In this document: positions 2-36,664 of the stretch, piece by piece | How positions within the stretch are numbered: the first letter of the stretch is position 1 | Layout of the letters: each line of letters opens with the position of its first letter | Assembly (NCBI GenBank): GCA_937925685.1 | Contig: CALAMI010000008.1 | Coordinates: 142,191 to 206,190, forward strand | Direction: 5' to 3' | Length of the DNA: 64,000 nt | From: Candidatus Binatia bacterium | GTDB taxonomy: Bacteria > Desulfobacterota > Binatia > HRBIN30 | The notes under the pieces: generated by a model | Told to the model about the DNA's origin: nothing | Database searches by the model: none | What the model saw: only the letters and a program-made list of their open reading frames with translations | Translations under genes and position numbers: made by a program

Positions 2-1066
2 GTGGATGCGGAACCGAAGTCCTTAGACCTTGGCAACTTGTACGCAAAACCCAGTGCTGTCCGCGAGCTTCAACTCCGTGCCGAAGGGGGAAGCGATCAA
101 GCCCTGCGGTTCAAAGTGCGTGCCCTCGCGCCGGAACTGGCTGCCCATGGGAGCGCGTTGACCGTAAGCCCGGCGCTGCTTACGGAAGCCGGGAGGCAAA
201 CGCTGACCTTTGAGCTTCTCAATCCGGTGACATTGCCGCATCGAGACGGGTACCAAGGCTATGTCTGCATCGAGTCGGGGGATGAAGATGTGGTGATGAA
301 GCCAATTAGCCTGCCAGTGAGATTTCGCTTCCATCCGCGAGGCACATTCAGGATCGACGCTATCGACAAGATCGACGCACTAACGTTGCAACCAGGTGCA
401 ACGGCGACGGTGCACTATCTCTTGCAGGGAGACTCGTGGGCAAAGGGCAAGGTGAAGGTAACGCATCCTGGGGCGGAAGAAGGGTTGCGGGTTCTCATTA
501 ACGGAAGCCCCGGGGTTGTGGAAGTCGCTGCGGGTGAGACGCTTGCCGTGGAACTGCAGAACGTGGGGATGAAATCGGCAGCCGCGGTGGAGCCTCAGCT
601 CATGTTGTCGTACCCGCCGGAAACCGGCGGCCCCGCGGCCATTGCCCTCCCGCTGGTGTCCCGCCCGCTGACGTGGTGGGAAAAGTGGCGTAGGTGGTGG
701 TGGCTCTTACTGCCCTTGCTCCTGGCCATGCTGGCAAAGGCCTGGCAAATGCGCTCGTGGGGATATCTCGCCGGCACAGGTCCCCCACCCGAATGCCGGG
801 AGCTGCGCGGTAAATTGCGCGGCAGGCGGCCGGTGGATCTCGGTAAGGTTACGGGGCTCAAGGAACTCGAAGGAGTTCGAATCCAGCGCAAGGGGGCGGT
901 GCTAATGGTTAAAGGGATCGGCGACCAGCCCGGGCGCAGGCTGGAATGTGAGGGAGATCCCCTGGAGGACAACGAGCCGATTAAATTTGGCGAAGAAGTC
1001 ACGGTTGTTGTCGATGGAACAGAAAAGGGAATGTTCGTGATCTGGCGGCGAGGACAAAAGGCGTAA
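2..1066 (+). CDS. hypothetical single-pass membrane protein (N-terminus cut by window edge); first gene of the tubulin-like operon
   Basis: ORF open from the window edge to TAA at 1064-1066. Trp/Leu-rich hydrophobic segment PLTWWEKWRRWWWLLLPLLLAMLAKAW splits a beta-rich N-terminal part from a ~110 aa C-terminal domain. The stop lies 13 nt before the next ATG, and a G-rich RBS-like stretch (AAAGGGGG) precedes that ATG. Confidence 0.6.
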   Translation: MDAEPKSLDLGNLYAKPSAVRELQLRAEGGSDQALRFKVRALAPELAAHGSALTVSPALLTEAGRQTLTFELLNPVTLPHRDGYQGYVCIESGDEDVVMKPISLPVRFRFHPRGTFRIDAIDKIDALTLQPGATATVHYLLQGDSWAKGKVKVTHPGAEEGLRVLINGSPGVVEVAAGETLAVELQNVGMKSAAAVEPQLMLSYPPETGGPAAIALPLVSRPLTWWEKWRRWWWLLLPLLLAMLAKAWQMRSWGYLAGTGPPPECRELRGKLRGRRPVDLGKVTGLKELEGVRIQRKGAVLMVKGIGDQPGRRLECEGDPLEDNEPIKFGEEVTVVVDGTEKGMFVIWRRGQKA

Positions 1067-1079
1067 AAGGGGGTTTTTT

Positions 1080-3941
1080 ATGGGACCGAAGGAAACACGG
1101 AGGCTCAAGAGAACGATCTTGATTGGTTTGGGAGGTACGGGCAAGGAAGCTCTATTGAGGGCAAAGAAGAATTACGTGGGTGTATTTGGTGAAATCCCCC
1201 CGTTGGTGAAGTTCCTATTGATCGATACCACCGGCGCAGCGATTGATTGCATACGCGCCGAATATCCCGAGGGGAGGCCAGTAGAGTTGCGCTTCGAACC
1301 AAACGAGGTGCTTTTGATCGAAGCCCGAGGCGCAAGCTTATTGCCGAAAACGCACGACGAAATTCGGGACTGGTTTCCTCCAAAGGCTGACCTCAAATCC
1401 AACATTATTTCCGGAGCTGGCCAAATTCGTGCGCTTGGGCGCCTCGCATTATTTGCCAATGCTCACAGCGTTTACGAGGGCCTGCGTGCTCTTTTGTCGC
1501 AGGCGCGCGACTACAGAGTGGAACGACCGACCCAGCAACAGCGCTTTGTGTACCAGCCTTATTCCCCTCATTTGACTGTGTGCATCGTGGGTTCACTGGC
1601 CGGGGGAACAGGTGCCGGAATTTTCCTCGATGTGGCCATGATTTTGCGTGACATTCTGAAAGATGAAGACCAACTCTTCGGCTACTTTTTGCTGCCCGAC
1701 ATTTACGTGAACCGACCGGGAACTCAGAACGTCGAGGCCAATGCGTACGCTGCTCTGTGCGAGCTAGACCACTACATGAGCCTCGACGGAACGCACTCCT
1801 ACTCCTTTGGAGGACGTAGGATCGAGGTCCGTAAAAAACCATTCGACATGGTCTTCCTCGTCAACAACCGCAATCGCGCCGGAAAGAGCTTTAACCAGAT
1901 CGAGGACATGGCTGAACTTCTGGGGCTCGGCGCCTTTCTGGTCAGTGGCCCCTTGGGCAAGCAACAGGCGGATGTGTTTGACAATATTATCATGCAACTC
2001 ACCGAACAGCAGGGGGCTTTTTATGGGAAGCGGGCACACTATGCCAGCTTTGGGGTAGCCGAGCTGCGCTTCCGCCCGCGCGAAGTCGGCGCGAGGGAAG
2101 GCTATCAGGTTGCTGAAAAGGTTCTGAACGATCTGCTCCATGATGACGGCCAAAGCTGGGGGACCACGCAGTTGGAGCGCCAGATCAACACCATCAAAGA
2201 GGCGGATGTGCGCGAAAAAGTGAAGGAAAAGGTCCTAGCTAACTTTTCTCTCCCGAAGCCCTCCGAGTCGCGCGCCGACGATCCTGAGGCGTGGCAGAAG
2301 GCAAAGCAGTCGTTTGCCGAACTCGAGGAAGCAGTTCGTTCAGAAGCCCTCCAATTGCTTTCGAAGGAAGTCAAGTCTTTTGAAAAAGAGCTAGGCGATG
2401 AACTCGACAAGAATTGGCGTACGTACTACGGCTTACCTTCGTTAAAAAGGGGCGTGCAGCAGTTGCACGAGGTAGCCCAAGACTGGATCAAACAATGCAA
2501 AATGGAGACAAAAAGCGCCGAACAAACACGAGACGAAATGCATTCTGCGCTTGAACGCAATCTAAAGAACCAGCGAGGCCTCGGACGGTGGCTGGGTGAG
2601 GGAAACAAAGAGCCGAGGGTCGATCGGAGCCAGCTCAGAAGGGGCCAGGATTGGGCGATCAATGTGGGAATCGAGAGAGCCCGTCTCGCGGCGGCTGAGG
2701 ATTTGGAAAAAGCACTCAAGGAAAAGCTCGAGCAGTTTGAACGTCTGGAAAAAAGCGTAAACGAATTCCTCAAAGACTTTCAGGCTCGAGTCAATAAGCG
2801 AACTACTCAAATAGGTGAGGATTCCTCGCCGTTTACAGTCACGTTGCCGCCTCCGTACTTGGAAGCGCCGAGCGAGAGTCGTGACGGCCATGACCGACCA
2901 GCTCGAGATGCCTTAGTAAGCAAGGGATTGCAAAACCTGCTGCAAAACCCTCCCAGCGTACTCAACGAAGTCTTTATTGGCACCACTACCTCTTTGAAAG
3001 ACTGGCTGCTGCAGGTGCAGGAAAAGGACCGCAACGACCCGATCCGGGAGGCAGTGGAGTCGGCCTTGCAAGAGCTGGATAAACTTTCTGCCCCAGCGTG
3101 GGATTATCAGGAGGCTTGGCTTGCCAACCCGAAGGTGGCGCGGCGCGAGCAAGTGCATATCCTCGGTTTGGAGAACGACGATCCCAATCACCCGTTGCTG
3201 CGAATCGACGGATTTCGGCACGTTTTTGCTGCCAGCGTCGAGGCAGACCGAAAACTCGCCTGCGTGCCTACTGGCGATCCGAACAGAATTTATTTGTACA
3301 AGATCGAAGCTTCGATACCGGCATTTACGTTGCAGGGAATCGAGATCTATCGGGAAAAGTACGACGATTTTTCCAAGGATCGCAGCTTCCACGTGGAACG
3401 CCGCTTCGAGGAAGACCCACCGGAGATTTTTCCCGTGCCGCTACCAGAAACGCTGGGCAGGGTGTGGACGAAGGCGCGCCTTTTTGGGCTGATTCGGAAG
3501 AGCGAAGGCACGCCGATGTACGAATGGCGAGGAGAAGAGGATACTGGCAAGGAACGTTGGCACGCCTTGGGAAGGACGTTGCATGAGGCGTTCCAGCGCC
3601 TTCGAAAAGATTTCTTTGCGTTCAAGGAACTTGAGTCAGCCGTGGCGGAAATGGAGGAGAAAGTTTGCATCCGAAGTCGCGACGGGGTCGAGAAGTTGAA
3701 ACAGTGCTGCGAGGAGGCTCTTAAACATTGTAAAAAGCTCAGCGAGAGCGCTAAGAACGGCAACGGTGCACAAAAACTTGGTCCTGAGGATCTCGAGGTC
3801 GTAAATCGCGAGATTGATGCCCTCACCGCCTGGATCGCGGAGCTCGAAACGTATTCCGGCCCCGGTGTAGAGGACCAGTTCCCCATTCTTGAGCTGACGG
3901 GACAACCAGATGGAGCTGCACCCGACAATCATCGTCGCTAG
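1080..3941 (+). CDS. tubulin/FtsZ-superfamily GTPase-domain protein with ~600 aa coiled-coil-rich C-terminal extension
   Basis: T1-like loop ILIGLGGTGKEAL at aa 13-25. The exact tubulin signature [SAG]GGTG[SA]G occurs as AGGTGAG at aa 174-180 (nt 1599-1619). A GAG T3-like motif (ISGAGQIRALG) is present. The C-terminal two thirds are KE-rich heptad-like segments, e.g. EEAVRSEALQLLSKEVKSFEKELGDELDK. Confidence 0.8.
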   Translation: MGPKETRRLKRTILIGLGGTGKEALLRAKKNYVGVFGEIPPLVKFLLIDTTGAAIDCIRAEYPEGRPVELRFEPNEVLLIEARGASLLPKTHDEIRDWFPPKADLKSNIISGAGQIRALGRLALFANAHSVYEGLRALLSQARDYRVERPTQQQRFVYQPYSPHLTVCIVGSLAGGTGAGIFLDVAMILRDILKDEDQLFGYFLLPDIYVNRPGTQNVEANAYAALCELDHYMSLDGTHSYSFGGRRIEVRKKPFDMVFLVNNRNRAGKSFNQIEDMAELLGLGAFLVSGPLGKQQADVFDNIIMQLTEQQGAFYGKRAHYASFGVAELRFRPREVGAREGYQVAEKVLNDLLHDDGQSWGTTQLERQINTIKEADVREKVKEKVLANFSLPKPSESRADDPEAWQKAKQSFAELEEAVRSEALQLLSKEVKSFEKELGDELDKNWRTYYGLPSLKRGVQQLHEVAQDWIKQCKMETKSAEQTRDEMHSALERNLKNQRGLGRWLGEGNKEPRVDRSQLRRGQDWAINVGIERARLAAAEDLEKALKEKLEQFERLEKSVNEFLKDFQARVNKRTTQIGEDSSPFTVTLPPPYLEAPSESRDGHDRPARDALVSKGLQNLLQNPPSVLNEVFIGTTTSLKDWLLQVQEKDRNDPIREAVESALQELDKLSAPAWDYQEAWLANPKVARREQVHILGLENDDPNHPLLRIDGFRHVFAASVEADRKLACVPTGDPNRIYLYKIEASIPAFTLQGIEIYREKYDDFSKDRSFHVERRFEEDPPEIFPVPLPETLGRVWTKARLFGLIRKSEGTPMYEWRGEEDTGKERWHALGRTLHEAFQRLRKDFFAFKELESAVAEMEEKVCIRSRDGVEKLKQCCEEALKHCKKLSESAKNGNGAQKLGPEDLEVVNREIDALTAWIAELETYSGPGVEDQFPILELTGQPDGAAPDNHRR
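1599..1619 (+). other. tubulin/FtsZ T4-loop signature AGGTGAG encoded in CDS 1080..3941
   Basis: Codons gcc ggg gga aca ggt gcc gga read directly, preceded by hydrophobic strand CIVGSL. Confidence 0.8.
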
Positions 3942-6198
3942 TGGTGGGACAGCTACCGAGCTTGTCTCGTCGCTGGTTGAAGACTGGCACGCTACTCTTG
4001 GCGATGCCGCTGAAGTCGTTGCTTTTGCTGTGCCTGCGGAGTTCGACAAGTGGGGGCAAGCGATCCGCGAAATCCATGATGTATTGACGGTTGCCCGCCT
4101 GCAGCGCCTAGGGCATTGGATCGACCCTGCGATCAATGGGGTGTGGTTGGCAGAACTCCATGACCCAGAGCTGCCGCGGCTTCTATCCTCTTTGGAAAAG
4201 GGGATGCAAAGTGGGCTGACCCAAGGACGCGAACTCCGTCTTCACATGCTCTTGTTACTCCCCGACTTATTCGACGCTTCGCCCCATGAACAAGAGCTTG
4301 CGAGTGCACACATAGAGTTGCTGCGCCCCACTAAGAACGCCTCGTTCACGATGCGCGTTTGGCCTCTGTCGGTGCGCAGCCGGGCCGACCTGTATATCCA
4401 CGACGCAAAAGATCTCTTGCCCCTAGTGCAATACTTTATTGAAGCATGTTTGCTGCGCTCGTTTCCGCTCCATCCCGATGGGCGCGACAGCATAGACTGG
4501 GCGGGTCTGGGCTGCTCGGTTTTCGCCATTGGTAAGCCTCTTCCACAAAACTTGGCACACGATGTTTGGGAGGAAGTGAAAAGGACCGTAGTCCGGTCTG
4601 TAACCTCGTGTTTGCAGCCGACCTCGAGTTTGGCAGGTAGGGAAGAAGACGCCGTTGGCGTAACATCACGTGGCCAGCAGGGTTCCGCTGGGGGGGCCCG
4701 CTTTGGTCAGTTCCCTGAGCGTCAGGATAACGTTTTCGGCGAGGATTTAGAGGTCCCGCCCTGTCCGAAAATCGAGCCAGATGACATTGCCTCTGCGGAA
4801 CAGCATCCGGTGCCTCAACGGAGCGATTGCTTCGATCATCCTAAGTGGGAAACGATCGTGGCCGGTCCATGGAGGAACTATGAAAAGCAGTCGCTGTCGT
4901 CCTGTACGGAGAAAATTTCGCTCAAGGTCGAGCCTTTCGAACGAGGGATCGTGGAGGAAGGAGTCCGCGTGGCCCTGCGGTGTGGCTTGCCACAGGTAGA
5001 GGAGTATCGACGGCGCTTGGAAAGAGCGCTCTCTCGGGCAAACGCTGAGCTCGATGCGGCTTTGGAACCATTCGACCGGCTCATGGGATTAAGTCAGGGT
5101 AGGAGACATCTTTTGCGTGCGGCAGTGAGCCCCGATTTACGGGCTCTGATCGAGGAGGCTGATGAGGCACTGGATGCTTGCGACCTGGAAGCGTTCTTAC
5201 GGCACGACCAGGAGGCTCGACAAATTAGCGAGGAGCTTAGGGAGACCCAGAATCAGTTCGAATTGAACGAGAAACAATGGAAAGAGAGATTCGAGACTAA
5301 GAAGCGCGAAGACGGCGCAACGATGAGTAACGCGCGCCGTGTGTTGCGTTGGATCCTGGACTTTTCAAGAAGACTGGTCGCTCCGTGGTTTGGTTGGGAA
5401 ACACCTTCCGACAAAATTGAAGAAGATCGCGCTTGGCGAAAACGCCACTGTGACAAGGCGTGGACGCTTGTCGACAAAGCCAGCAAGCTCGAGGCGAAGA
5501 AGTGGGAGCGTAGCCGCTTTTGGTTCGAACGCTGGGCGGAGTTTCGAGTGCGGCGTGCCTACCGGGACGCTTTATTGGCTGCCTTGGAGCGTTGCCGGAG
5601 CGTTCTGTCCGCTGCAAAGCACCTCGAAGTGAAACCAATTCTTCCGGCTCAGCCGCCACTGATTTTAACCTTGAATCTCCCGCGCCCCCTCGTCCAACCG
5701 ACCGTCGAGCGACTAGCGCAAGAGCTGGTGAGGGAGCGCCTCCTCGAGGAACTGTGGGATGGCCACACCGACACCCTGGTGAGAAGACTTGTTCGTAAGT
5801 CGGAGGAGGCCATTGCCGAGCTACCTGAGCCGACCCTGGAAGAAATGTTGGATGACGACGCTTGGGCGGCGGCATTCCAGGTGGCGGCGCCCCGCGTCAT
5901 GGTTGCCCATCGCCCCGAACAGGAAATGTACACCCTTTTGTATACCCCGGGGCCATTACCACGGTTTTCGGAGAAGGTACTCGTGGATCGGTATTGGCGT
6001 TCGGGCGGCCTGGTGATGTTCCGCTGTGTGCTGCCAATCTATCCTGAGGCGTTGCTTACGGAAGCAGCCAGCCCGAGGGTCGCACGAGCGGGTCACGGTG
6101 ATGGCGCGAAACCCTACTCGGCAGGCCGCAATTTCTCCAAAAATGACGACCGGCCAAACCACCTTCTCGAAGAGGTATTTGGAGCTAATGCAGCTTGA
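3910..6198 (+). CDS. paralog of the upstream tubulin-like protein (probably degenerate, signature-less GTPase domain) with coiled-coil C-terminal region
   Basis: N-terminus TIIVASGGTATELVS aligns with TILIGLGGTGKEALL of the upstream gene. LLLLPDLFD matches YFLLPDIYV (T5-like). No GGTG[SA]G motif is found. Coiled-coil stretch EARQISEELRETQNQFELNEKQWKERFETKKRE. Start overlaps the upstream stop by 32 nt in another frame. Confidence 0.7.
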   Translation: MELHPTIIVASGGTATELVSSLVEDWHATLGDAAEVVAFAVPAEFDKWGQAIREIHDVLTVARLQRLGHWIDPAINGVWLAELHDPELPRLLSSLEKGMQSGLTQGRELRLHMLLLLPDLFDASPHEQELASAHIELLRPTKNASFTMRVWPLSVRSRADLYIHDAKDLLPLVQYFIEACLLRSFPLHPDGRDSIDWAGLGCSVFAIGKPLPQNLAHDVWEEVKRTVVRSVTSCLQPTSSLAGREEDAVGVTSRGQQGSAGGARFGQFPERQDNVFGEDLEVPPCPKIEPDDIASAEQHPVPQRSDCFDHPKWETIVAGPWRNYEKQSLSSCTEKISLKVEPFERGIVEEGVRVALRCGLPQVEEYRRRLERALSRANAELDAALEPFDRLMGLSQGRRHLLRAAVSPDLRALIEEADEALDACDLEAFLRHDQEARQISEELRETQNQFELNEKQWKERFETKKREDGATMSNARRVLRWILDFSRRLVAPWFGWETPSDKIEEDRAWRKRHCDKAWTLVDKASKLEAKKWERSRFWFERWAEFRVRRAYRDALLAALERCRSVLSAAKHLEVKPILPAQPPLILTLNLPRPLVQPTVERLAQELVRERLLEELWDGHTDTLVRRLVRKSEEAIAELPEPTLEEMLDDDAWAAAFQVAAPRVMVAHRPEQEMYTLLYTPGPLPRFSEKVLVDRYWRSGGLVMFRCVLPIYPEALLTEAASPRVARAGHGDGAKPYSAGRNFSKNDDRPNHLLEEVFGANAA

Positions 6199-7663
6199 GG
6201 AAGCATTTCCCGGTAAAGTGATCTGTAAGGGTACCGCCTTGAATCCCCCTTTCGATCGTCTACCGCGGTTCGTGGCGGAATACTTGGTGGCAAAATTTGC
6301 CCCGGAAGGTGCCGAGAATCGTCTGAGTCGTTTACGGGAATTCGTCCAGCGACATTACCCAACTTTAGAGCAACGGGAGTGGGCGAAAGATCAGCTCCTA
6401 CGCCGTGACCGCTTGGTGCTGATCGACGAACTCCGAGTGAAGCCGGATCTCACCACCGGCCTCTACACGGCGCAGTTAGCCACTTTAGGTGACGTACGAG
6501 TAACGGTTCCGAGCGAGATTTGCGACCGATACCCGGCGGTACTCTATGGTCTTTGGGGAACCCTCGAACTCCGGTACGAAAAGCGCAGCCGGGAAGCAAC
6601 GTTAAGACAATTTATCCCGTTTCAGGTCGGGGCCGATTTCCAGGAGTTCTTGCGTGGGCGTGCTCAATTTTCATTGAACGAGTGGGTCGATATCCTGCTT
6701 GGAGCCGTCGGATTCGACCCCGCACGCCTTCTGGATAGAGAGAAACAGCTTCTGTTGACCCGCCTGGCACCTTTGGTCGAGCCTCGCCTTCAACTCATGG
6801 AACTCGGACCGCGGCAGACTGGAAAATCGTTTTTGCTGAGAAATTGCTCGCCTGACGTGTTCCTGCTCTCTAGTAGTACCGTGAGTCCCGCCACCCTCTT
6901 TTACCATCAGGTATCCCGGCGGCCCGGCTTGTTGTCGGCTTATTCCGTGGTCGTATTCGACGAAATCGGTCATGGACGATGGGTGGACCGGGAGCTCATC
7001 GGAACGCTCAACGACGTGATGGAGTCCGGCAGATTCACCCGTGGCGGGCGGGCGTTTACGGTGCAAACCTCGCTGGTGTTTCTGGGGAACACGGACGACC
7101 CCTCGGTGCCTCAGACAAAGCTGTTACCGCGTGGATTGGCCGGCGAGACAGGATTTTTAGACCGGTTGAACGCCCTCATCCCGGGTCACGAGCTTCCCAA
7201 GATTAATCCGCAACTCGTCAACCACGGCGTGGGGCTGGCAGTCGATTACTTGGCTGAAATCTTGCGCTTTCTTAGGAAAAAGGACATCCACCTTGCGATT
7301 GCACACGAGTTACCGCCCCGGTGCACGGAACGCGATCTCCGCAGCGTGCGGCGCTTGGTAGCGGCCTTCGCAAAGCTGTTGTACCCGGCGGGCGACTGGT
7401 CCCTTGACCAGTTGCGCCCATGGATCGAACTGGCTTGCGAGCTGCGCGAAAAGGTTTGGGTGGAACTCTCCGCCTGGAACCCTGTGGAGTTCCCCCCGCG
7501 TCAGCGGAGAGAAGTTGTCGACAGTGGACCAAAGGGGGCTACCGCGATATCCACCCTCGCCGAGGCCGAGCGCGAACTGGGGGAAGCTGTAGGCGCAGTG
7601 TCCGAGAGCTTGGCCGAGTCGGCGAATGCCGAGGGTAACTCGAGTGCGCGAGGCGAAACCTAA
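6188..7663 (+). CDS. P-loop NTPase of unknown family (AAA/STAND-like)
   Basis: Walker A LGPRQTGKSFLL and Walker B VVVFDEIGH, with TLNDV...GG downstream. The ORF track opens this frame at 6026, but that would overlap the previous gene by 173 nt. I chose ATG 6188 because of GGAG at 6181-6184, giving an 11 nt overlap with the stop of the upstream gene. 6143 is an alternative start. Confidence 0.65.
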   Translation: MQLEEAFPGKVICKGTALNPPFDRLPRFVAEYLVAKFAPEGAENRLSRLREFVQRHYPTLEQREWAKDQLLRRDRLVLIDELRVKPDLTTGLYTAQLATLGDVRVTVPSEICDRYPAVLYGLWGTLELRYEKRSREATLRQFIPFQVGADFQEFLRGRAQFSLNEWVDILLGAVGFDPARLLDREKQLLLTRLAPLVEPRLQLMELGPRQTGKSFLLRNCSPDVFLLSSSTVSPATLFYHQVSRRPGLLSAYSVVVFDEIGHGRWVDRELIGTLNDVMESGRFTRGGRAFTVQTSLVFLGNTDDPSVPQTKLLPRGLAGETGFLDRLNALIPGHELPKINPQLVNHGVGLAVDYLAEILRFLRKKDIHLAIAHELPPRCTERDLRSVRRLVAAFAKLLYPAGDWSLDQLRPWIELACELREKVWVELSAWNPVEFPPRQRREVVDSGPKGATAISTLAEAERELGEAVGAVSESLAESANAEGNSSARGET

Positions 7664-11586: not shown

Positions 11587-13359
11587 ATGACGGTTTGCAA
11601 CCAAGGGGAAAGCGCACGAGTAAGGCGTTGGCAGTGGTGCTTTGCCCACGAGGCAATGTTCGTTGTTCCACTCGAAGTGCTGGGACCATGTGGAGTGTCC
11701 CCAGAGTTTGCAGCCCAAGTGACTGCTGCTGGGTTGATTCGGGAAAGTGTTCTGAACTGCCTGGGAAGGGCATTTGCGGCATTCTGGGAGCGCAGCATCG
11801 CCCTACACGAGGCCGACCCTGCGCACTGGTTCCCACCGAGAGCGCAGCACATTTGTTTCATCCGAAAAGGAGCTGAAGTTAGGCCGTATTTTCAACCAAT
11901 TTACAACAGCTCTTGGCTTCTTTACGAGGTCGACGTCGACCCGGACACCTCCTCGCTCGAACTAGCTACCTATCTATTCTTCCATGCCGAGCGAATGAGT
12001 TGGCGCCGGGAGGTTTTGGCCGCCTACGAGGAAACGTTACCTTATTGGCTGCTTCGCACCGAAGAGGAAATTGCCGACTTTCATCAGGGTTGTTTCCTGT
12101 CAACTCGCCCGGACGCTGCTGCCTTTCGCGCGCTCGCGGAGGCGTTGCCTTGGATCCGCAGTTTGTACCATGTCCGACTTCGGCCGCCAGCGCTCACTTT
12201 TCCCTCGGGGCTCGTGACTCTGGGGCGCAGCGGATTGCTGGCACCGCGACAGGACTTGCGGGAGTGGGAAAAGTTGAAGACCACCTGGCAGCAGAGCGCT
12301 GAGCGGGTCGTCGAGCGGCATTACGGGTTGTATGCGAAGCGCACCCGAAGGTCCGCCAATCTTCTTTGCCGGTGGTTGAGCGAGCGCAAACCCGAGGTCC
12401 TCATCGTGGGGCAAGGACTTGATGTCGTTTGGGAGCCAGCACGACCTCGGGAAACGACAAAACTCAAGCGCTCGCTGCCGGATCTGTCGCCAGAAGTCGC
12501 GGAAAGTATTCGAGCAGACTTGGAAGTAATCGATGCCCATTCACGGCGCTTTCTCCGTGCCGTGTGCGCTCCGTTGCCCCAACAGTGGCCCAATATCGAG
12601 CCTGGCGGACTGTGCTTTTTATGGCGTGAGCGTCCGATCATTGCTTACCGCTTGCAGGAGCCAGGGATGGATCGCTTGCGCCTTCCAGCTCCACCGTACG
12701 AGCGCTTGATGCTGGGCGCCCGGACGATGCACGAGTGGGGTCACTTGGCTGCTACCGCTGGCTGGGTAGGCGTGACGGCGGAGAGAACGGACGAGTGGAG
12801 ACGCACTTGCGAGCGTCTCGAGGAGCTGTGCACGCGGGTGGTACGCGATGCGCCGCCGAGTCTCCGCGCATCCTTGGGGAACGAACTGGATCGCTTGGCT
12901 AAAGAAGGATCAGTTGCCCGTGCCCTGGCCTCCATCGTGCACGCTCGGATGGAGGACTACCGCGCCAATGTGGTGGCCCGTGAGTTCTTATCCCGCCTCG
13001 AACTGGAAACGTATGTGCGCAACAATGTGACCTGCCTGCAACAGTCTATGCGGCCAACAGCAATTTTCCAACGGCTGGTGCGTTACGCATATGAGTTCCA
13101 GTATCTTGGCTTGATCGGGCTTGACGACCCGTGGCGTTACCTCTGCGCCAGCACCTGGTTCGATCGCGAGTACTGGGTTAGCGGGGCAGTGGCGCGTTCG
13201 CTCACGGAAGAACTCTTCGCGTGTGTGGCCGATTTATGTGCCATGCAGTGGATCGACCCCAGAAAACTTGCGTGTGCGCGGCACACGGATCAGTGCCCAC
13301 AAGCGACGACAGCCCACGGGCAAGCGTCCTCTCAGGCCAGGAACCCCTGTGGCTCGTAA
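11587..13359 (+). CDS. hypothetical cytoplasmic protein with an HEXXH motif (TMHEWGHLAA)
   Basis: 590-codon ORF of complex, non-repetitive composition. A single HEWGH zinc-binding-like motif with acidic residues 15-25 aa downstream. Converges with and overlaps by 28 nt the DUF1501 gene on the other strand. The start is uncertain, because internal Met MFVVPLEV is also possible. Confidence 0.5.
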   Translation: MTVCNQGESARVRRWQWCFAHEAMFVVPLEVLGPCGVSPEFAAQVTAAGLIRESVLNCLGRAFAAFWERSIALHEADPAHWFPPRAQHICFIRKGAEVRPYFQPIYNSSWLLYEVDVDPDTSSLELATYLFFHAERMSWRREVLAAYEETLPYWLLRTEEEIADFHQGCFLSTRPDAAAFRALAEALPWIRSLYHVRLRPPALTFPSGLVTLGRSGLLAPRQDLREWEKLKTTWQQSAERVVERHYGLYAKRTRRSANLLCRWLSERKPEVLIVGQGLDVVWEPARPRETTKLKRSLPDLSPEVAESIRADLEVIDAHSRRFLRAVCAPLPQQWPNIEPGGLCFLWRERPIIAYRLQEPGMDRLRLPAPPYERLMLGARTMHEWGHLAATAGWVGVTAERTDEWRRTCERLEELCTRVVRDAPPSLRASLGNELDRLAKEGSVARALASIVHARMEDYRANVVAREFLSRLELETYVRNNVTCLQQSMRPTAIFQRLVRYAYEFQYLGLIGLDDPWRYLCASTWFDREYWVSGAVARSLTEELFACVADLCAMQWIDPRKLACARHTDQCPQATTAHGQASSQARNPCGS

Positions 13360-14801
13360 GCAAACCCTCCTGCACCCAGGATTTGGTTTGCCGTGGTTGT
13401 CGATAAACCAAGCCAGCGCACCATGACCTCCCCATAAACGTGGCGAAAATCCAAGGTGTGAACCATGTTCCCGTTTCGGTCTGGAAGGTGAAGCTCCGGA
13501 TAAGCACCATACACTCCGCCGGAGACGAACGAATTCGTGGACGACTCCACTTTTCTGGGCCCAATCACAAAGACAGGGCTCGCGGTTCCGTGATCTGTGC
13601 CCGTGTCGGCGTTGTTATTGCCGTTTTCGGCGATTCGGCGTCCGAACTCCGTGAACGTCATAATTAACGTATTGTGATGGAGATTTGCTGCTTCGAGATC
13701 CCGCCAGAATGCCGTAACGGCCTTATCCACCTGATGTAAGAGTTTTCCATGGAGCTCGTCGCGGAAATTATCGGCGACTTTCTGGTGAATGGACTTCTCG
13801 CTGAGGGGAACGTGTCTTCCTTGATCGGAATGGGTGTCAAATCCACCAATACCGACGCGAAAAATCCGGCAGCCTAAAGGCTGGTTTCCAGGTTGCGCTC
13901 CAAGGAGCAGGGCATAGACGAGTCGTAAGGCATAGGCGAGCCCGTAACGTTGCGGTGTCGGTGAGGCGATCGGGTGATCGGCAGCACCATTGATAAGGGC
14001 GTTTAGATTTTCAGCCGAGGAAGAGGAAACAGAGCGGTAAGTGTTCATCCTCGATGCCACGGCGTGTCCCACCTGGGCCCACTGCCTGACGAACCCCGCA
14101 CCGCTAGCCGACAGCGACTGGTAGATCGCGCGAAACGCTTGCTCCAAGGGTTGCCGCTGGTCCGGATTGAACAGGGGATTGCTGGGAATCATCAGGTCGC
14201 TCACACTGGTAAATGCCAGAGTGGACGTTTGTCCGAAAAACAGCGGGTTCAGCGAGCGCGCAATGTCGACCGCAGGTACGGGCAGGTTTTGCCCACTGCA
14301 CAAACTGTCAAGCGTGCGTCCCATCCAACCTTCGCTAATCCCGGAGAGAAGCGGATCGGCTTTGTACCAGATCGCCTTGGATACATCGTGAGACAGGTTC
14401 CCGTTGGCGTAGTGGGCTCCGAGGATCACGGCCAGGTTTCCGCTGTCGTACAGGCTTTTGAGCCCCGTCATATGCGGGTGCAACGCCAGTTCCCCTCCAT
14501 GAAGGGGATCGTTATCGATCTGGGTTTGGCCCAGCTCAGAGACAGGGATGTTGAGCCACTGACGGGCAACGTCGTAACGCGTCCGGTTCTGCCCCGTGCC
14601 GTCTGTCAGCGGTACAACCGTGTTAATGCCATCGTTTCCACCATCGAGTTCGACAAGAATCAAGTTGGGACCCTGTTCGCACGCCTCGAGCGCACTGGCT
14701 TCCCGTGCTTTTAGCCAGATACCGGGAAGAGAAAATACCGCAGAGGCTCCTACAGTGGCTTTCAGAAACTCTCTCCGTGTGAAGCGCATGGGCGATCCCA
14801 C
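13332..14801 (-). CDS. DUF1501 family protein (Tat-signal, sulfatase-like fold)
   Basis: N-terminus MRFTRREFLKATVGASAVFSLPG (twin-arginine RREFLK); LVELDGGNDGINTVVP; ~490 aa, typical DUF1501 size; immediately downstream of a DUF1800 gene. Confidence 0.85.
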   Translation of the reverse strand: MGSPMRFTRREFLKATVGASAVFSLPGIWLKAREASALEACEQGPNLILVELDGGNDGINTVVPLTDGTGQNRTRYDVARQWLNIPVSELGQTQIDNDPLHGGELALHPHMTGLKSLYDSGNLAVILGAHYANGNLSHDVSKAIWYKADPLLSGISEGWMGRTLDSLCSGQNLPVPAVDIARSLNPLFFGQTSTLAFTSVSDLMIPSNPLFNPDQRQPLEQAFRAIYQSLSASGAGFVRQWAQVGHAVASRMNTYRSVSSSSAENLNALINGAADHPIASPTPQRYGLAYALRLVYALLLGAQPGNQPLGCRIFRVGIGGFDTHSDQGRHVPLSEKSIHQKVADNFRDELHGKLLHQVDKAVTAFWRDLEAANLHHNTLIMTFTEFGRRIAENGNNNADTGTDHGTASPVFVIGPRKVESSTNSFVSGGVYGAYPELHLPDRNGNMVHTLDFRHVYGEVMVRWLGLSTTTANQILGAGGFAYEPQGFLA

Positions 14802-14813
14802 CTCCTTCTCCGT

Positions 14814-16358
14814 TCAGTGCACGTGGTATTGCGGCAGCGTTAGAATCATTTGCACCAGGGGATTCAGGCGTGAGAAAATGTTGCGGTCATCACGTGGATT
14901 GAAGGGGTCTTCAGCGCCAAGCAGCGCGACCAATTGGGAGCCTGTCGCTTCGTCCACTTGTATCGGTCCGAGTAAGCGCAACAGACGGTCCACCACCTCT
15001 TGGCGAGGCATTGGGCGTGCAGGCAATAGCCGCTCCGCTTTCACCGGATCTTTCTGATTTTTCGGTGGCCATCGACGCGTACACAATCGGGCAGCAAAGA
15101 TAGCTCGTTGGAGAAGTGCGTGGGACGTGATCCAGTATTGATTGCCCTTCCAGCTAAATACGTCCGGAGGGTCCAATAACGTTTGGCCCATCTGCCCGAG
15201 GCCGCCTTTTCGTTGAAAGCCCTCGTTGCCCAGTTCCTCCAGCGTATCGTAAAAGGTATACCGTTTGGATTCTGTGCGGCGCGCCCGCAACATGCGTAAC
15301 GACCCCACGACGTACTCGACGGGGCCCTTCACCGTCCGGGTGCGGTGAGCGTAAAACTCGGCGCGCAAAAACATTGCCCGCAGCACAACCGGAATCCGGT
15401 AGCCGCTTGCAACAAAGACGTCGGCGAGGTCGTCGATCACGGGCAGGTCCTCGCGCGTAGTCCCGGTATCGACCACGGGATCGTAGGCGTAAAACTTCCA
15501 CAGTTTGCGAACGAGGAAACGCGCCGCCGTTGGCCGCCCTTCGGTGTCACGATGGTTGAAAATGGCGTCGATCAGGCGTCGATGCTCATCCACCGCTAGA
15601 GTGGGGTCGTTCGATGCCGGTTCTGTGTAGGCATTGCCAGGGTTCTGCGAAGGAGTTTCGTTCGGGTCGGGTGCGAAAAGAATTTTTTCGCCCGTGTGGT
15701 GCCGATTCATGTCGAAGTAGGCTTCGACGTCGTTCTCCAGCTCCCGAATGCGCCAACCGGTCAGCATTCGGGCTGCCTGAGTGACGTCGTTCTGGGAGTA
15801 GTTTTTGTTGCCGGCAAAGTCGAACACCCCAATCGTAAACAACTCCATGAGTTCGCGGGCGTAGTTCTCGTTGGGAGCACGGCGTGTGTTCGACTGCCCG
15901 TCGAGCCACCACAACATCGCCGGGTCAATGTTGATCGCTTTGACCAGTTCGCGAAAATCTCCGAGAGCGTAACTCCGGAAGAGTGCGTTTTGCTTGGCCA
16001 TGTAAAGCGATTTGCTCACGCGCGATTGCGCGGTGGCAAAATGCGTGTGCAGAAAGAGAACGATCTTCTCCAACGCTGGGTTCTTTGGCTCGATCATTTG
16101 TTTGAGCCACCAAGCGCGTAACGCGTCGAACGAAGCCCAGTCGCGAACCGTTAGGTTACCCGGGCCTTGCACGGTTCTTGGCACCCGCAATCGGAGCACC
16201 CAGTCAACGGCTTGTTCGGGTGTTTTGTTGGCAAGGCTTCGCACCAGCGTGGCCTCACCAGTGCTCTTGCGTACAGCTCCGTTGTGGCCAAAGCCGGAAC
16301 GCAAAAGTAGGTGAGCGGCGGTTTCGTAGTTCCATTGATCTGGCGTGATGTTGGGCAT
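14814..16358 (-). CDS. DUF1800 family protein
   Basis: N-terminus ...TAAHLLLRSGFGHNGA..., and ~514 aa. Followed after a 12 nt gap by a DUF1501 gene, the canonical arrangement. Confidence 0.85.
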   Translation of the reverse strand: MPNITPDQWNYETAAHLLLRSGFGHNGAVRKSTGEATLVRSLANKTPEQAVDWVLRLRVPRTVQGPGNLTVRDWASFDALRAWWLKQMIEPKNPALEKIVLFLHTHFATAQSRVSKSLYMAKQNALFRSYALGDFRELVKAINIDPAMLWWLDGQSNTRRAPNENYARELMELFTIGVFDFAGNKNYSQNDVTQAARMLTGWRIRELENDVEAYFDMNRHHTGEKILFAPDPNETPSQNPGNAYTEPASNDPTLAVDEHRRLIDAIFNHRDTEGRPTAARFLVRKLWKFYAYDPVVDTGTTREDLPVIDDLADVFVASGYRIPVVLRAMFLRAEFYAHRTRTVKGPVEYVVGSLRMLRARRTESKRYTFYDTLEELGNEGFQRKGGLGQMGQTLLDPPDVFSWKGNQYWITSHALLQRAIFAARLCTRRWPPKNQKDPVKAERLLPARPMPRQEVVDRLLRLLGPIQVDEATGSQLVALLGAEDPFNPRDDRNIFSRLNPLVQMILTLPQYHVH

Positions 16359-16380
16359 CGCGAAGCCTCCTACCGCGAAG

Positions 16381-17469
16381 TTACTGGCACGAGTAAGAGC
16401 TGGCGATGAACCCTGTGGCCGGGGCTCCGGCCAGGATCCAGTCTTTCAGCAGCCGGATCTCGCCTCCGGTCAAGCGTGGCCGGGCGCGGTCGGCAGACGG
16501 GTTGTGAAAGGGCATGCGCAACCCGTAGGCACCGGGACCAAACATAGGGCTGTTCAAGCGGGAGCCGCCTAAAACCTTGAGGTACAACAGGCTGCCATCC
16601 GGGTCGCCCGGTTTAACGCGCAGGAGCCCGTCCGTTGCAGCCGCAAAGTTATGAGGCGTGACGTTCACTAAATCGCTATGGGCAGATCGGCTTCCCCCGC
16701 AGGAAGGCTTCAAGCAAAGGTCGTGTGAAGGCTCGATGGAACCATGACAACCAGCCAGGTTCGAACATTTGCGGTCGAAGATATGTTGTTGGATTTGTTC
16801 GAACGTACTGGCGACGTTGCTGCAGGGGCTGATCGCCTGGTTCGTCATCGGATCGATAGGTGGCAGGCACACAAGCCTGAAGGCATCTGTGTCATGGGAG
16901 ACGCCTACCGGACATCTCCCCCCGCTGAGGAGCGGCACCGTGCAAATTGTAGTCTGAAGCCTGAGTGTAAAAGGACGGAACTTGGGACCGGCACCGGTTT
17001 GTGTGACGGGTAAAACGACGCGCACGGTTTGCCATCCGGACCAACGGTCGACATCCGCACTCGTCAACGGAAGTTCGCCATCGGCAAAAAGCTGAAGCGG
17101 TTCGAAGTCCGGCACATGTTTCGGATGATCGTCGAAGCTCGGGCCGGTGTAGGGGATGGCGAAACTACCAGCAGGGAAATTCGACGGGCTACAGCCGGGG
17201 AAAGTCGTAGAGTTCAGCCCAATTTGAACTTGGAAGCCACACTGGCCCAGCGTGTTGTCGGCATCGCCGCAGGTGGCGTCCTGGTCCCGGCAACGAACGA
17301 ATTTCGGACTCGATGCAGGGGTATTCGGCGCTGGGTTCGACTGGAAAGCCACCCAACAGTCGGTCGCGGTGGGACCTCCACCTCCTACCTGAGCGCGTGC
17401 TGGCAGAGCGACCGCTAGCACGATCATGAACCACACGCTTCGTTTGTGAACAAAGGCGGTCGGTGTCAC
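16381..17469 (-). CDS. secreted Cys-rich protein with a C-terminal PSCyt (planctomycete cytochrome-c-like) type domain carrying a non-canonical CSNLAGCH motif
   Basis: Signal peptide MIVLAVALPARAQ and 19 Cys. C-terminal pattern FEQIQQHIFDRKCSNLAGCHG...DLVNV...GDPDGSLLYLKVLGG...MP...LTGGEIRLLKDWILAGAP matches the PSCyt1-like layout (C..CHG ... GG ... MP ... EI..L..WI..GA). Confidence 0.7.
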   Translation of the reverse strand: MTPTAFVHKRSVWFMIVLAVALPARAQVGGGGPTATDCWVAFQSNPAPNTPASSPKFVRCRDQDATCGDADNTLGQCGFQVQIGLNSTTFPGCSPSNFPAGSFAIPYTGPSFDDHPKHVPDFEPLQLFADGELPLTSADVDRWSGWQTVRVVLPVTQTGAGPKFRPFTLRLQTTICTVPLLSGGRCPVGVSHDTDAFRLVCLPPIDPMTNQAISPCSNVASTFEQIQQHIFDRKCSNLAGCHGSIEPSHDLCLKPSCGGSRSAHSDLVNVTPHNFAAATDGLLRVKPGDPDGSLLYLKVLGGSRLNSPMFGPGAYGLRMPFHNPSADRARPRLTGGEIRLLKDWILAGAPATGFIASSYSCQ

Positions 17470-18914
17470 GGCAGGAAGAGGGGCTGACCGTTCACGGGTT
17501 GAACGAAGTCAAACTGTGGGGAGGTCCAGTACTCGTTGGGATCTCCGCTGTCCGGTTGTAGAAGGCTAGACAAGATCTCGCTCTCGGGAATTGCAAGCCA
17601 ATGCTTTAGCACGGCACCGTAAACATCACGAAAATCGGTAGAGCGATGGGGGTCGGCGTTGTTTTGGGAGTACTTGGTGTTCCCATCGTCCCATGTCGCA
17701 CCCGGATTGAGCACTCGGCTATCAGAAATGTTGGGATGGTTTCCGTACACGCCGCCGTTGATTTTCCCCCCGATCAGAAACATGGGTCCTTGCGAGCCAT
17801 GGTCCGTGCCATTGTCATTTTGCTGCGGGCGCCGGGAAAACTCGCTCCAGATCATCACGAGTACCTTGTCCGCAATGCCCATGTCTGCGAGGTCGTGGTA
17901 AAAGAGCTCGACGGCATCCCCCACTTCCCGGTGCAACTCGTAGTGAGTCTGGTCGGCACCGACTGTCCCTTGGTTGGCGTGAGTGTCGTAACCGCCATTG
18001 GACAACGCAAAGTGTCGTGCTGCGACGTTGGGCACACCCTGGTGGACGCCGTAGATCGCTTTTGCGACTTCGCGCAGGCGACGTGCTGTGCCACTGTCCA
18101 AATCGTTGTACTGTTGGAGCCAAGAACCACGATCAGTTTGGTATAAGCCGTCCAAGGTTGGGTACGCCTGCGTCGCTGTCAGTGTCGCTTGACCACTGTT
18201 CCCTACGAACCGTAGCAAGGGCTGGGAAGATGCTTGTGCCGACGCATATACAGCTTGAAACGCCGAGAGTTTCGCCGAGTCGTCGTCGGGGTACCAGTCG
18301 TCAAGGGGGAACTCGAGTTCCGAGAGGCGACTGGCAGTCAGAACGCTAGTGACTTGCTGCCGAAACTCCCCCGCCATCCAGTAGCCGACAGAGAGGCCCG
18401 GAATGTCCGTCGCTCCATACCGGGATGCCAGGTAGCGGCCAAGCCAACCCGGCCCCATGGCCGCCCGTGACCCTGTCTCCCAAATCGACCGAGACACGGC
18501 GTGCGATAGATTGTACTCGGGGTAACCACACCCTTGGATAATTGCCACCTTCCCGAGTTGGTACAGTCGATGAAGCCCCTCGAGGCCAGGATGCAATGCC
18601 AGGGGAGTGTTCGTCGGTGGATCGTTGGCGATGGCGTAAGGGCTAAGGATGCTCGGTGCCAGCCTGAGTCCGCCAGGGCCAGTGCGGCGGAGTAACTCGT
18701 AGCTCGCGCGGAAGTTGGCGAAGCTCCCATTTGCGAGCGGGACGACTGTATTGAGCCCGTCGTTACCACCGTCCAGGAAGATGGACACGAGGAAACGATC
18801 CCCGATGTCAGCAAATGCTTTGCGCACCAACGGGCGGCTCCACAAGCCGTGGGTCATCAGTCCCCCGGCCAGGAGTCCGGTTCGAACGAGAAAATCACGG
18901 CGAGACAATGACAT
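17466..18914 (-). CDS. DUF1501 family protein (second copy)
   Basis: MSLSRRDFLVRTGLLAGG (Tat-like); FLDGGNDGLNTVVPL; collinear with the first copy at 13332-14801. Its stop overlaps the next start by 4 nt. Confidence 0.85.
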   Translation of the reverse strand: MSLSRRDFLVRTGLLAGGLMTHGLWSRPLVRKAFADIGDRFLVSIFLDGGNDGLNTVVPLANGSFANFRASYELLRRTGPGGLRLAPSILSPYAIANDPPTNTPLALHPGLEGLHRLYQLGKVAIIQGCGYPEYNLSHAVSRSIWETGSRAAMGPGWLGRYLASRYGATDIPGLSVGYWMAGEFRQQVTSVLTASRLSELEFPLDDWYPDDDSAKLSAFQAVYASAQASSQPLLRFVGNSGQATLTATQAYPTLDGLYQTDRGSWLQQYNDLDSGTARRLREVAKAIYGVHQGVPNVAARHFALSNGGYDTHANQGTVGADQTHYELHREVGDAVELFYHDLADMGIADKVLVMIWSEFSRRPQQNDNGTDHGSQGPMFLIGGKINGGVYGNHPNISDSRVLNPGATWDDGNTKYSQNNADPHRSTDFRDVYGAVLKHWLAIPESEILSSLLQPDSGDPNEYWTSPQFDFVQPVNGQPLFLP

Positions 18915-18934
18915 GTATTGGCTCCTCGATGCTG

Positions 18935-36558: not shown

Positions 36559-36664
36559 ATGCGATCCTTCGTCCGACTGTGTTGCCTCGGTTAATTTGAT
36601 GCCTGGGTGCGTGCCCGCTTACAAGCGATAAATTTTGGTAGCCTCTCCCCCGAGGCAGCTCGTG

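Follow-up and report, generated by a model that had tools for sequence, protein, structure and literature searches.

An FtsZl1 tubulin-like cassette with a predicted pseudo-tubulin partner and a short BrxL-type ATPase, conserved in Binatia and Deinococcota

Introduction

Within the tubulin/FtsZ superfamily, FtsZl1 stands out as the most divergent branch. The family, together with its linkage to vWA-domain genes, was described by Makarova and Koonin in 2010 (Biol Direct 5:33, PMC2875224), and the supplement of that work already tabulates the order vWA, FtsZl1 and a 681-amino-acid (aa) hypothetical protein in Meiothermus silvanus, as well as a pair in M. ruber. A second description came from Kaur, Burroughs, Iyer and Aravind in 2020 (eLife 9:e52696, PMC7159879), who reported GAP1-N2 GTPase-centric systems in Firmicutes; the Firmicute form combines two tubulin and coiled-coil genes with a transmembrane (TM) vWA protein whose vWA domain lies outside the cell, and the authors predicted these to be conflict systems that work close to the membrane and form cytoskeleton-like assemblies. 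Here we analyse a related four-gene operon at the start of a 64,000-nucleotide stretch (the window) from Candidatus Binatia bacterium (contig CALAMI010000008.1, positions 142,191 to 206,190). In order, it encodes a vWA membrane protein (gene 1), an FtsZl1 protein (gene 2), a large partner that models and profiles mark as a degenerate FtsZl1 paralog (gene 3, FtsZl1-prime or FtsZl1') and a short BrxL-type AAA+ ATPase (gene 4).

Compared with the FtsZl1 proteins described in 2010, the gene 2 product has the same architecture of an FtsZ-like domain at the N-terminus, a coiled coil and a mostly α-helical C-terminus, and the hallmark upstream vWA membrane protein is also present here (PMC2875224). 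An earlier first-pass annotation, made from the DNA alone, had counted FtsZ-like-1 among the known families and had held that the operon matches none of the canonical architectures; this did not stand, as gene 2 is a textbook FtsZl1 with its usual neighbour and systems with two tubulins and a vWA protein are on record (PMC7159879). The M. silvanus and M. ruber cassettes tabulated in 2010 belong to the same clade as that of the window. In that study the large protein encoded downstream was not identified as a paralog with the tubulin fold, and a BrxL/COG4930-type ATPase was not discussed as a component (PMC2875224), while the 2020 study makes no mention of BrxL, BREX, Thermus or Deinococcus, the Deinococcota and Binatia lineages being likewise absent from it (PMC7159879).

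Results

The four genes form a conserved unit

An open reading frame (ORF) check bore out the four tightly spaced + strand genes of the first-pass annotation, with their coordinates (Table 1) and junctions, and the motifs that had been quoted for genes 2-4 were found in place. The fourth ORF spans 6026..7663, with its true start at the ATG at 6188. The junctions 1/2, 2/3 and 3/4 measure +13, -32 and -11 nt, respectively. Since the junctions are this tight, a scan of the cassette found no promoter-like site, and terminator-like sites within it were not above shuffled expectation, the arrangement fits a single transcription unit.

In the neighbourhood comparison that the first-pass annotation had suggested, the four genes form one conserved unit. 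The order FtsZl1, partner, BrxL-like is identical in 11 distinct loci from two phyla: three in Binatia (this window, bacterium HR30 and a Binatia metagenome-assembled genome, or MAG) and eight in Deinococcota (Calidithermus roseus, three Meiothermus, two chromosomal Thermus, a Thermus oshimai plasmid and Deinococcus aerophilus). Wherever the partner family occurs, the brxL-like gene comes next (11/11 loci). A vWA homolog lies upstream in nine of the 11; of the remaining two, locus L006 ends at a contig edge and L020 has a 563-aa gene in that position, with no detected vWA. The junctions are overlapping or nearly abutting across loci, with that between the partner and the brxL-like gene ranging from an 11-nt overlap to a 13-nt gap in the loci with called genes. 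The FtsZl1 proteins of the cassettes fall into a discrete clade, as do the BrxL-like ones (43-76% identity within the BrxL clade); the two clades span the same taxa, and the partner co-diverges with them. The latter evolves fastest, as indicated by the identities between the window and Calidithermus (FtsZl1 51%, partner 30%, BrxL 53%).

The triad of vWA protein, FtsZl1 and FtsZl1' is widespread, and it occurs without BrxL in Nostoc and two uncultured bacteria. Because the triad exists on its own in other phyla, the BrxL-like ATPase is a clade-specific addition in Deinococcota and Binatia, where its gene fills the NTPase slot held by the GAP1-N2 GTPase in the Firmicute and actinobacterial versions. 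A scan of metagenomes returned only one further locus, of the same sequence type as HR30, and 2.9 million viral contigs yielded only a single partial FtsZl1 relative. Among the Binatia, the cassette stands at different sites. Two Binatia MAGs share flanking genes (among them ADH, DHO dehydrogenase and acyl-CoA dehydrogenases): L023 (8117-16551) carries the full cassette, and L022 (10001-11215) has at the syntenic site only a 5'-truncated brxL-like gene of 404 aa. The site is polymorphic for presence or absence of the cassette, which has apparently been lost from L022 with a remnant left behind.

Gene 2 encodes an FtsZl1-family tubulin-like protein

The product of gene 2 is a clear member of the FtsZl1/Tubulin_2 family. 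It matches the Pfam profile Tubulin_2 (PF13809) with 201.7 bits against a cut-off of 27 (E=2.6e-59), its aa 13-338 covering profile positions 1-344 of 356. The AlphaFold2 (AF2) model has a pLDDT (per-residue confidence) of 90.9 and a pTM (predicted template modelling score) of 0.81, and its top 50 Foldseek matches in the PDB (E from 1.6e-5, probability 1.0) consist entirely of CetZ, FtsZ, tubulin, gamma-tubulin and TubZ structures. The assignment to the tubulin/FtsZ superfamily, first made from motifs, was thereby confirmed. Beyond the N-terminal domain, about 600 aa had been taken for a KE-rich, heptad-like tail; the model instead shows an α/β tubulin-fold domain (1-353) followed by three long helices (398-576), a second α/β region (586-830) and terminal helices (834-924).

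Across 115 aligned homologs, little or no variation is seen in the T1 loop (IGLGGTG), the GAGQxRxxGR block and the T4 signature (S-x-x-GGTG-x-G), and S172, G175, G176, T177, G178 and G180 of gene 2 are identical throughout. The motif LLPDIY lies at aa 204. The T1, T3 and T4 motifs are intact, and GTP binding and hydrolysis are predicted from this motif conservation.

In the Pfam search, neither gene 2 nor gene 3 matched FtsZ_C, Tubulin_C or PF00091, and a T7-type catalytic loop was not detectable in either product. A HMMER profile built from the 115 FtsZl1 sequences and run against the PDB (E<=10) returned coiled-coil noise and a weak match resembling the RecA C-terminal domain (CTD), and the 60 best chains listed included neither FtsZ nor tubulin. 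This outcome agrees with the 2010 report that the T6-H7 region of FtsZl1 could not be aligned (PMC2875224). As a separate observation, positions 801-858 of the FtsZl1 profile weakly match the RecA CTD (3hr8_A, E=0.0055), with stronger scores on tandem-RecA fusion chains, hinting at a small RecA-CTD-like module at window positions 3480-3660 (FtsZl1 aa ~800-860).

Gene 3 encodes an FtsZl1 paralog without the glycine loops

The gene 3 product comprises a tubulin-fold N-domain (1-225), a disordered linker (231-277), long helices (313-571) and an α/β C-domain (585-710), so that the tubulin/FtsZ GTPase-domain fold is found in the products of both gene 2 and gene 3. The N-domain is without the T1 and T4 glycine motifs. 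It contains ASGGTA at aa 10-15 and LLPDLF at aa 116, and the GGT of the former is not conserved within the family, whose consensus reads PT(L/I)VxA, then variable positions, and contains neither GGxG nor GGTG[SA]G. This family has just 12 invariant columns, and no glycine loop is among them.

The relationship between the two proteins, which the first-pass annotation called that of a clear paralog, is not evident by sequence and emerged from structure and profile comparison. A BLASTP alignment of genes 2 and 3 gave E=0.026 over 50 aa, too weak alone. Gene 3 and six close homologs had no Pfam, NCBIfam or PADLOC match, even at E<=10, and its homologs amount to 6 clusters among 5.8 billion proteins. 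A HMMER profile of the partner family searched against 1.84 billion representative proteins retrieved 21 clusters, none of them FtsZl1, and sequence profiles of this family alone therefore cannot establish paralogy. An hhalign comparison aligned the N-termini of genes 2 and 3 with E=0.002 at 13.6% probability, and their C-terminal halves align as well (E=0.003), collinearly with the N-terminal alignment.

The bridge is provided by the distant FtsZl1 operons of Nostoc and the two uncultured bacteria, in which the gene after FtsZl1 encodes a protein of 1,018-1,129 aa with a sub-threshold Tubulin_2 match (E=6e-5 to 0.017). The partner family of the window aligns with this distant third-gene family at 95.6% probability (E=1.2e-8), and the distant family in turn matches FtsZl1 at 95.8% (E=8e-9), its T1 and T4 regions falling in register. 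In addition, genes 2 and 3 share the order of their elements: N-domain, long helices, a short strand near residue 586 and a helical/β C-domain. On the strength of the sub-threshold matches, the profile bridges, the shared element order and the collinear C-termini, we conclude that gene 3 encodes a full-length FtsZl1 paralog that has kept the tubulin fold and lost the nucleotide-binding glycine loops, a putative pseudo-GTPase. The distant paralogs (L010 12746-16039; L013 12779-15835; L012 12807-16196) have one or two predicted TM helices in mid-protein; unlike them, the window partner has none.

Gene 4 encodes a short BrxL-type ATPase

Gene 4 had been described as a P-loop NTPase; both Walker motifs, A and B, are indeed present, and the protein can be placed more precisely as a short BrxL. 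It matches the Pfam families BrxL_N (E=2.9e-18) and BrxL_ATPase (E=1.3e-78), exceeds the cut-off of the short-BrxL equivalog TIGR02688 (346 bits against 329) and aligns to residues 13-463 of Acinetobacter BrxL (PDB 8emc_A, E=1.6e-60). To our knowledge, BrxL is a DNA-clamping ATPase known only from BREX phage defence. In that setting it is a DNA-binding ring needed for phage restriction (PMC10164562), and its N-terminal region binds DNA (PMC12839542). E259 of gene 4 aligns with BrxL E280, the mutation of which abolishes phage restriction (PMC10164562), and both the ring-interface residues E79/L134 and the pore residues S264/R265 of BrxL are conserved. The Lon-protease-like C-terminal domain is absent (TIGR02653, 248 bits against a cut-off of 628; no Lon_C or ChlI match), and the protein stops ~55 aa past the ATPase domain, before the point at which that domain would begin. 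The BrxL of type-4 BREX is also short and lacks the Lon-like domain (PMC12839542). Judged by its sequence, gene 4 is thus a predicted MCM-like AAA+ ATPase that keeps the BrxL N-terminal region and Walker motifs.

The cassette BrxL proteins stand apart as a clade with ~40% identity to canonical long BrxL. Elsewhere, at L017 7354-11497, a Ser/Thr kinase and two unknown genes precede the gene for a further short BrxL-like ATPase (498 aa, 39% identical), and neither BREX nor tubulin genes lie close to it. Several non-BREX cassettes seem to have reused short BrxL rings.

Gene 1 encodes a vWA membrane protein with a predicted extracellular domain

Gene 1 is truncated by the window edge, its 5' end lying ~690 nt upstream. 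Its full sequence, and the 10 kb upstream of the window, were read from the 436-kb metagenomic contig ERZ6863514 (labelled L002), found by exact-protein look-up. The full gene corresponds to a 685-aa ORF at L002:7930-9987 with a likely start at MNRRRG, which yields ~584 aa, in agreement with orthologs of 547-619 aa. What had been annotated as a single-pass membrane anchor does possess a single TM helix, but proved to be the C-terminal part of a vWA protein cut by the window edge. The signal peptide or TM segment and the vWA domain (VWA_2 in the full product, 29.5 bits against a cut-off of 27) fall outside the window, and the MIDAS (metal ion-dependent adhesion site) DxSxS motif of the latter is intact as DTSKS.

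From the N-terminus, the protein consists of a signal peptide or TM segment, the vWA domain, a β-rich stalk, one TM helix and a ~100-aa cytoplasmic tail. The topology of a signal/TM segment at the start and a TM helix plus tail at the end is common to nine vWA orthologs, from which an outward-facing vWA domain and an inward-facing tail are predicted. The cytoplasmic tails of five orthologs contain no Pfam domain, the only hint being one to MU2_FHA (E=0.16).

Between the window and L002, the shared part of gene 1 (window 2-1066, L002 8923-9987) shows two residue differences (V/L, W/S) and gene 2 shows none; window and contig ERZ6863514 are close strain variants. Directly upstream of the vWA gene lies a gene for a Cys-rich secreted protein of 667-672 aa without a Pfam match (L002 5646-7664). 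The 667-aa product was considered as a fifth component and rejected: it is kept only in the closest relative, bacterium HR30, where it is 83% identical, more than the cassette proteins, and is missing from all other cassette loci.

Table 1. Features of the operon in the window
Feature	Position	Strand	Evidence
vWA membrane-protein gene, 3' part (last 354 codons)	2..1066	+	Window ORF and L002 extension
Single C-terminal TM helix of the vWA protein, WWWLLLPLLLAMLAKAW	695..745	+	Hydropathy; orthologs exceed threshold at equivalent position
FtsZl1-family tubulin-like GTPase (predicted), 953 aa	1080..3941	+	Pfam Tubulin_2, AF2, Foldseek
T1-type glycine loop GLGGTG, aa 16-21	1125..1142	+	Nearly invariant in 115 homologs
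T3-like SGAGQ, aa 111-115, followed by invariant R117, G120 and R121	1410..1424	+	115-homolog alignment
T4 tubulin signature AGGTGAG, aa 174-180	1599..1619	+	115-homolog alignment
Degenerate FtsZl1 paralog (FtsZl1-prime), 762 aa	3910..6198	+	Fold and profile comparison
Short BrxL-type AAA+ ATPase, 491 aa	6188..7663	+	BrxL_N, BrxL_ATPase, TIGR02688, 8emc
Walker A GPRQTGKS, aa 207-214	6806..6829	+	Motif search
Walker B VVVFDE, aa 254-259	6947..6964	+	Motif search

Genomic context of the cassette

Recognised defence genes lie within 10 kb of the cassette in all eight Deinococcota loci and in none of the three Binatia loci. A DrmD-like SNF2 helicase (E=3e-119) and a DrmMI-like methylase (E=4e-100) are found either right after brxL or just upstream of the cassette, and GajB-like UvrD helicases overlap the brxL stop codon. 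Further Deinococcota neighbours include DruE-like and DpdF/DinG-like giant helicases, pPIWI-RE, HepT/MNT and PIN toxin-antitoxin pairs, Csm6 and Cas1.

Every Thermus or Meiothermus locus has a helicase, UvrD/GajB-like or DrmD-like, directly after the brxL-like gene (L007 13396-15627; L020 16375-18387; L021 16377-18365; L006 5818-8580; L008 13588-16449; L015 11613-14129). The UvrD/GajB-like type carries an N-terminal extension of ~230-300 aa and has a 4-nt overlap with the brxL stop; the DrmD-like SNF2 type is followed by a DrmMI-like methylase of 1,330-1,410 aa. Cassette and helicase may together make up an extended five- or six-gene system in these genera.

Two other kinds of gene recur in the surroundings. 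TROVE/Ro60-like genes stand near FtsZl1 cassettes on the Thermus oshimai plasmid (L020 6727-8202) and in Nostoc (L013 1-962); Ro60 itself includes a vWA domain. In three unrelated loci (L005 2438-5053, L016 17118-19258 and L013 4417-7341), signalling genes of the GAF/PAS-GGDEF-EAL type stand no more than 10 kb away from the cassette, a proximity that may be a coincidence.

The window itself contains, on the - strand at 13332-20416, DUF1800/DUF1501 gene pairs, of which Pfam confirmed two DUF1800 and one DUF1501. Also on the - strand, positions 33370-40816 encode two giant secreted proteins. M10-like peptidase and dockerin motifs mark the protein of 1,062 aa, NHL/teneurin-type repeats and a dockerin that of 1,383 aa; the + strand GC skew peaks (0.26) in this interval.

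Discussion

A role in conflict or defence against phages or mobile DNA is, in our view, the most likely function of the cassette, and we give it about an even chance. This reading rests on the homology of gene 4 to BrxL, the accessory and patchy distribution of the cassette and the neighbourhoods of the Deinococcota loci. It is further supported by the plasmid-borne copy in Thermus oshimai, by the variable sites among the Binatia and the loss that left a truncated brxL remnant, and by the independent prediction of related tubulin and vWA systems as conflict systems (PMC7159879). In Thermaceae, we infer that the cassette works beside or together with the helicase and methyltransferase genes.

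A stand-alone immune system is a narrower and more tentative proposal, possible but on the doubtful side, in which a tubulin heterodimer would serve as transducer or scaffold linking a vWA phage sensor to a DNA-blocking, MCM-like BrxL clamp at the membrane. On the broader defence reading as well, FtsZl1 and its dead paralog would form an active/inactive pair, as in α/β-tubulin or BtubA/B, that assembles on the vWA receptor's tail beneath the membrane in a GTP-dependent manner. What triggers or localises this assembly would be the binding of a ligand at the vWA ectodomain or a perturbation of the envelope there, and the assembly in turn might recruit or activate the BrxL-like ring on DNA close to the membrane, for instance the incoming DNA of a phage or other foreign DNA.

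Several observations weigh against a defence role or against this mechanism. The label "defence-like" in the first-pass annotation suits the Deinococcota, but not the Binatia, in whose loci, the window included, genes for metabolism or secreted proteins surround the cassette. Synteny of the cassette between the window organism and bacterium HR30 speaks for vertical inheritance. Defence genes are plentiful in Thermaceae genomes, and the association in all eight Deinococcota loci stands without a computed background. PADLOC holds no model for genes 1-3, and the literature searched contains no experiment on any FtsZl1 system since the 2010 description. With regard to the proteins, two of the four BrxL pore residues important for DNA binding are replaced in gene 4 (R104->T, K287->V), canonical polymerisation-coupled GTP hydrolysis by FtsZl1 is unproven since neither a T7 loop nor FtsZ_C/Tubulin_C is detectable, and the heterodimer and its contact with the vWA tail are pure conjecture.

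The main rival is a membrane-remodelling or cytoskeletal machine, in which the vWA protein would anchor FtsZl1/FtsZl1' filaments that shape or bud the membrane and the BrxL-like AAA+ ring would disassemble or remodel the protein polymer, in the manner of Vps4 or katanin, rather than act on DNA. We regard it as unlikely. Remodelling was the original prediction for FtsZl1 operons (PMC2875224), and the altered pore residues, the Binatia loci outside defence islands, the synteny of the window with HR30, the TM helices of the distant third-gene paralogs and the occurrence of the triad without BrxL, mostly in non-defence contexts, would all suit it. On the other hand, gene 4 retains the N-terminal region that binds DNA in BrxL (PMC12839542) as well as the pore residues S/R at 243-244, and the ESCRT-like matches reflect generic helical-hairpin similarity. 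The patchy distribution with a plasmid copy and presence/absence polymorphism, the defence genes beside all eight Deinococcota loci and the helicase that always follows brxL in Thermaceae, with a 4-8 nt junction, likewise favour defence over remodelling.

Alternatively, the operon could combine two independent modules, the triad and a brxL-like gene belonging to a neighbouring BREX- or DISARM-like restriction system of helicase and methyltransferase, which would then be orphaned in Binatia. In Thermus and Meiothermus, brxL does stand directly before the DrmD-like and DrmMI-like genes or a UvrD-like helicase, the triad exists elsewhere without brxL, and brxL-like genes are found apart from tubulin genes, as the lone truncated copy of L022 and the short gene that accompanies a kinase illustrate. 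Nevertheless, the brxL-like gene keeps its position in all 11 loci, including the three Binatia, Calidithermus and Deinococcus aerophilus, none of which has an adjacent helicase or methylase, and such an invariant position is hard to reconcile with separate modules. Moreover, the cassette BrxL proteins form their own clade with a distribution matching those of FtsZl1 and the partner, the DrmD/DrmMI pair of M. ruber lies on the opposite side of the cassette with toxin-antitoxin genes in between, and L022 resembles a deletion remnant at a syntenic site rather than an independent gene, which together render this explanation improbable. DNA segregation or positioning of the TubZRC kind, with FtsZl1 filaments moving DNA and the BrxL-like ring as the DNA adaptor, is very improbable: the Thermus plasmid copy and DNA binding by BrxL could be cited for it, but an extracytoplasmic vWA receptor has no role in such a scheme, the cassette is mostly chromosomal and can be lost, the operon is not flanked by iterated centromere-like repeats, a TubR-like small helix-turn-helix (HTH) gene is missing, and the viral contigs gave only the one partial relative.

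If the stand-alone immune reading is correct, the cassette would provide the first demonstrated tubulin-based defence mechanism in prokaryotes and a function for FtsZl1, a still uncharacterised branch of the tubulin superfamily. Should the defence hypothesis hold, tubulin-like roles would extend from division and segregation to immunity, and BrxL-type rings would be reusable modules outside BREX. The loop-less paralog next to FtsZl1 suggests an obligate active/inactive pair, as in α/β-tubulin, while the fixed genetic link between FtsZl1 and BrxL turns a vague prediction of membrane remodelling into a hypothesis that can be tested in the genetically tractable Thermus.

Comparison with known systems

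In contrast to the FtsZl1 operons described in 2010 (PMC2875224), the cassette is without a GTPase, kinase or OmpA gene. The two tubulin and coiled-coil genes and the TM-anchored extracellular vWA protein of the GAP1-N2 systems are also present here; the second (YtkA-fused) vWA gene and the FNIII protein are missing, and a BrxL-type AAA+ ATPase is found instead. No GTPase Pfam family and no NKxD motif that would indicate a GAP1-N2 GTPase turned up among the neighbours, a search made with no dedicated GAP1-N2 model, and the BrxL-like ATPase is the sole genuine P-loop protein that the operon and its surroundings encode.

Gene 4 shares the Walker A/B motifs, the ring interface and S264/R265 with the BrxL of BREX, resembles type-4 BrxL in lacking the Lon-like domain, and differs at the pore residues R104 and K287. 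None of the genes for PglZ, BrxC/PglY, PglX, BrxA/B or PAPS reductase was found among the called genes within 10 kb on either side or the scanned window ORFs (those of at least 800 aa plus others). Membership of BREX was rejected, the defining genes being missing from the 64-kb window and the 10 kb upstream, and so was membership of class 1 DISARM, with no DrmA, DrmB, DrmC, DrmD or DrmMI in the window; of that system, only DrmD-like and DrmMI-like genes flank the cassette, in Thermus and Meiothermus loci.

In α/β-tubulin, one partner binds a non-exchangeable GTP. The cassette partner departs from this pattern, and from those of BtubA/B and the Asgard AtubA/B, in that it has lost the nucleotide loops altogether; in further contrast to these pairs, neither FtsZl1 nor its partner has Tubulin_C/FtsZ_C or a recognisable T7, and both possess long coiled coils and extra C-terminal domains. 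As in MoxR-vWA pairs and the ternary conflict systems, an AAA+ ATPase is co-encoded with a vWA protein in a multi-gene, NTP-dependent module, but here the ATPase is of the BrxL/MCM type and not MoxR. Because the vWA domain is predicted to lie outside the cell and the ATPase inside, the classic contact between MIDAS and AAA+ is unlikely. Membership of the MoxR-vWA group was rejected for want of its defining genes, as was that of TubZRC type III partition, with no direct-repeat arrays flanking the operon and no small HTH gene in the cassette.

The literature searched holds no paper that links FtsZl1 with BrxL or describes a BrxL-bearing variant. The linkage of FtsZl1 with vWA has been known since 2010, and conflict systems with paired tubulin/coiled-coil proteins and an extracellular vWA since 2020; what appears undescribed is the variant with a BrxL-type ATPase, its association with defence islands in Deinococcota, and the structural evidence for a pseudo-tubulin partner.

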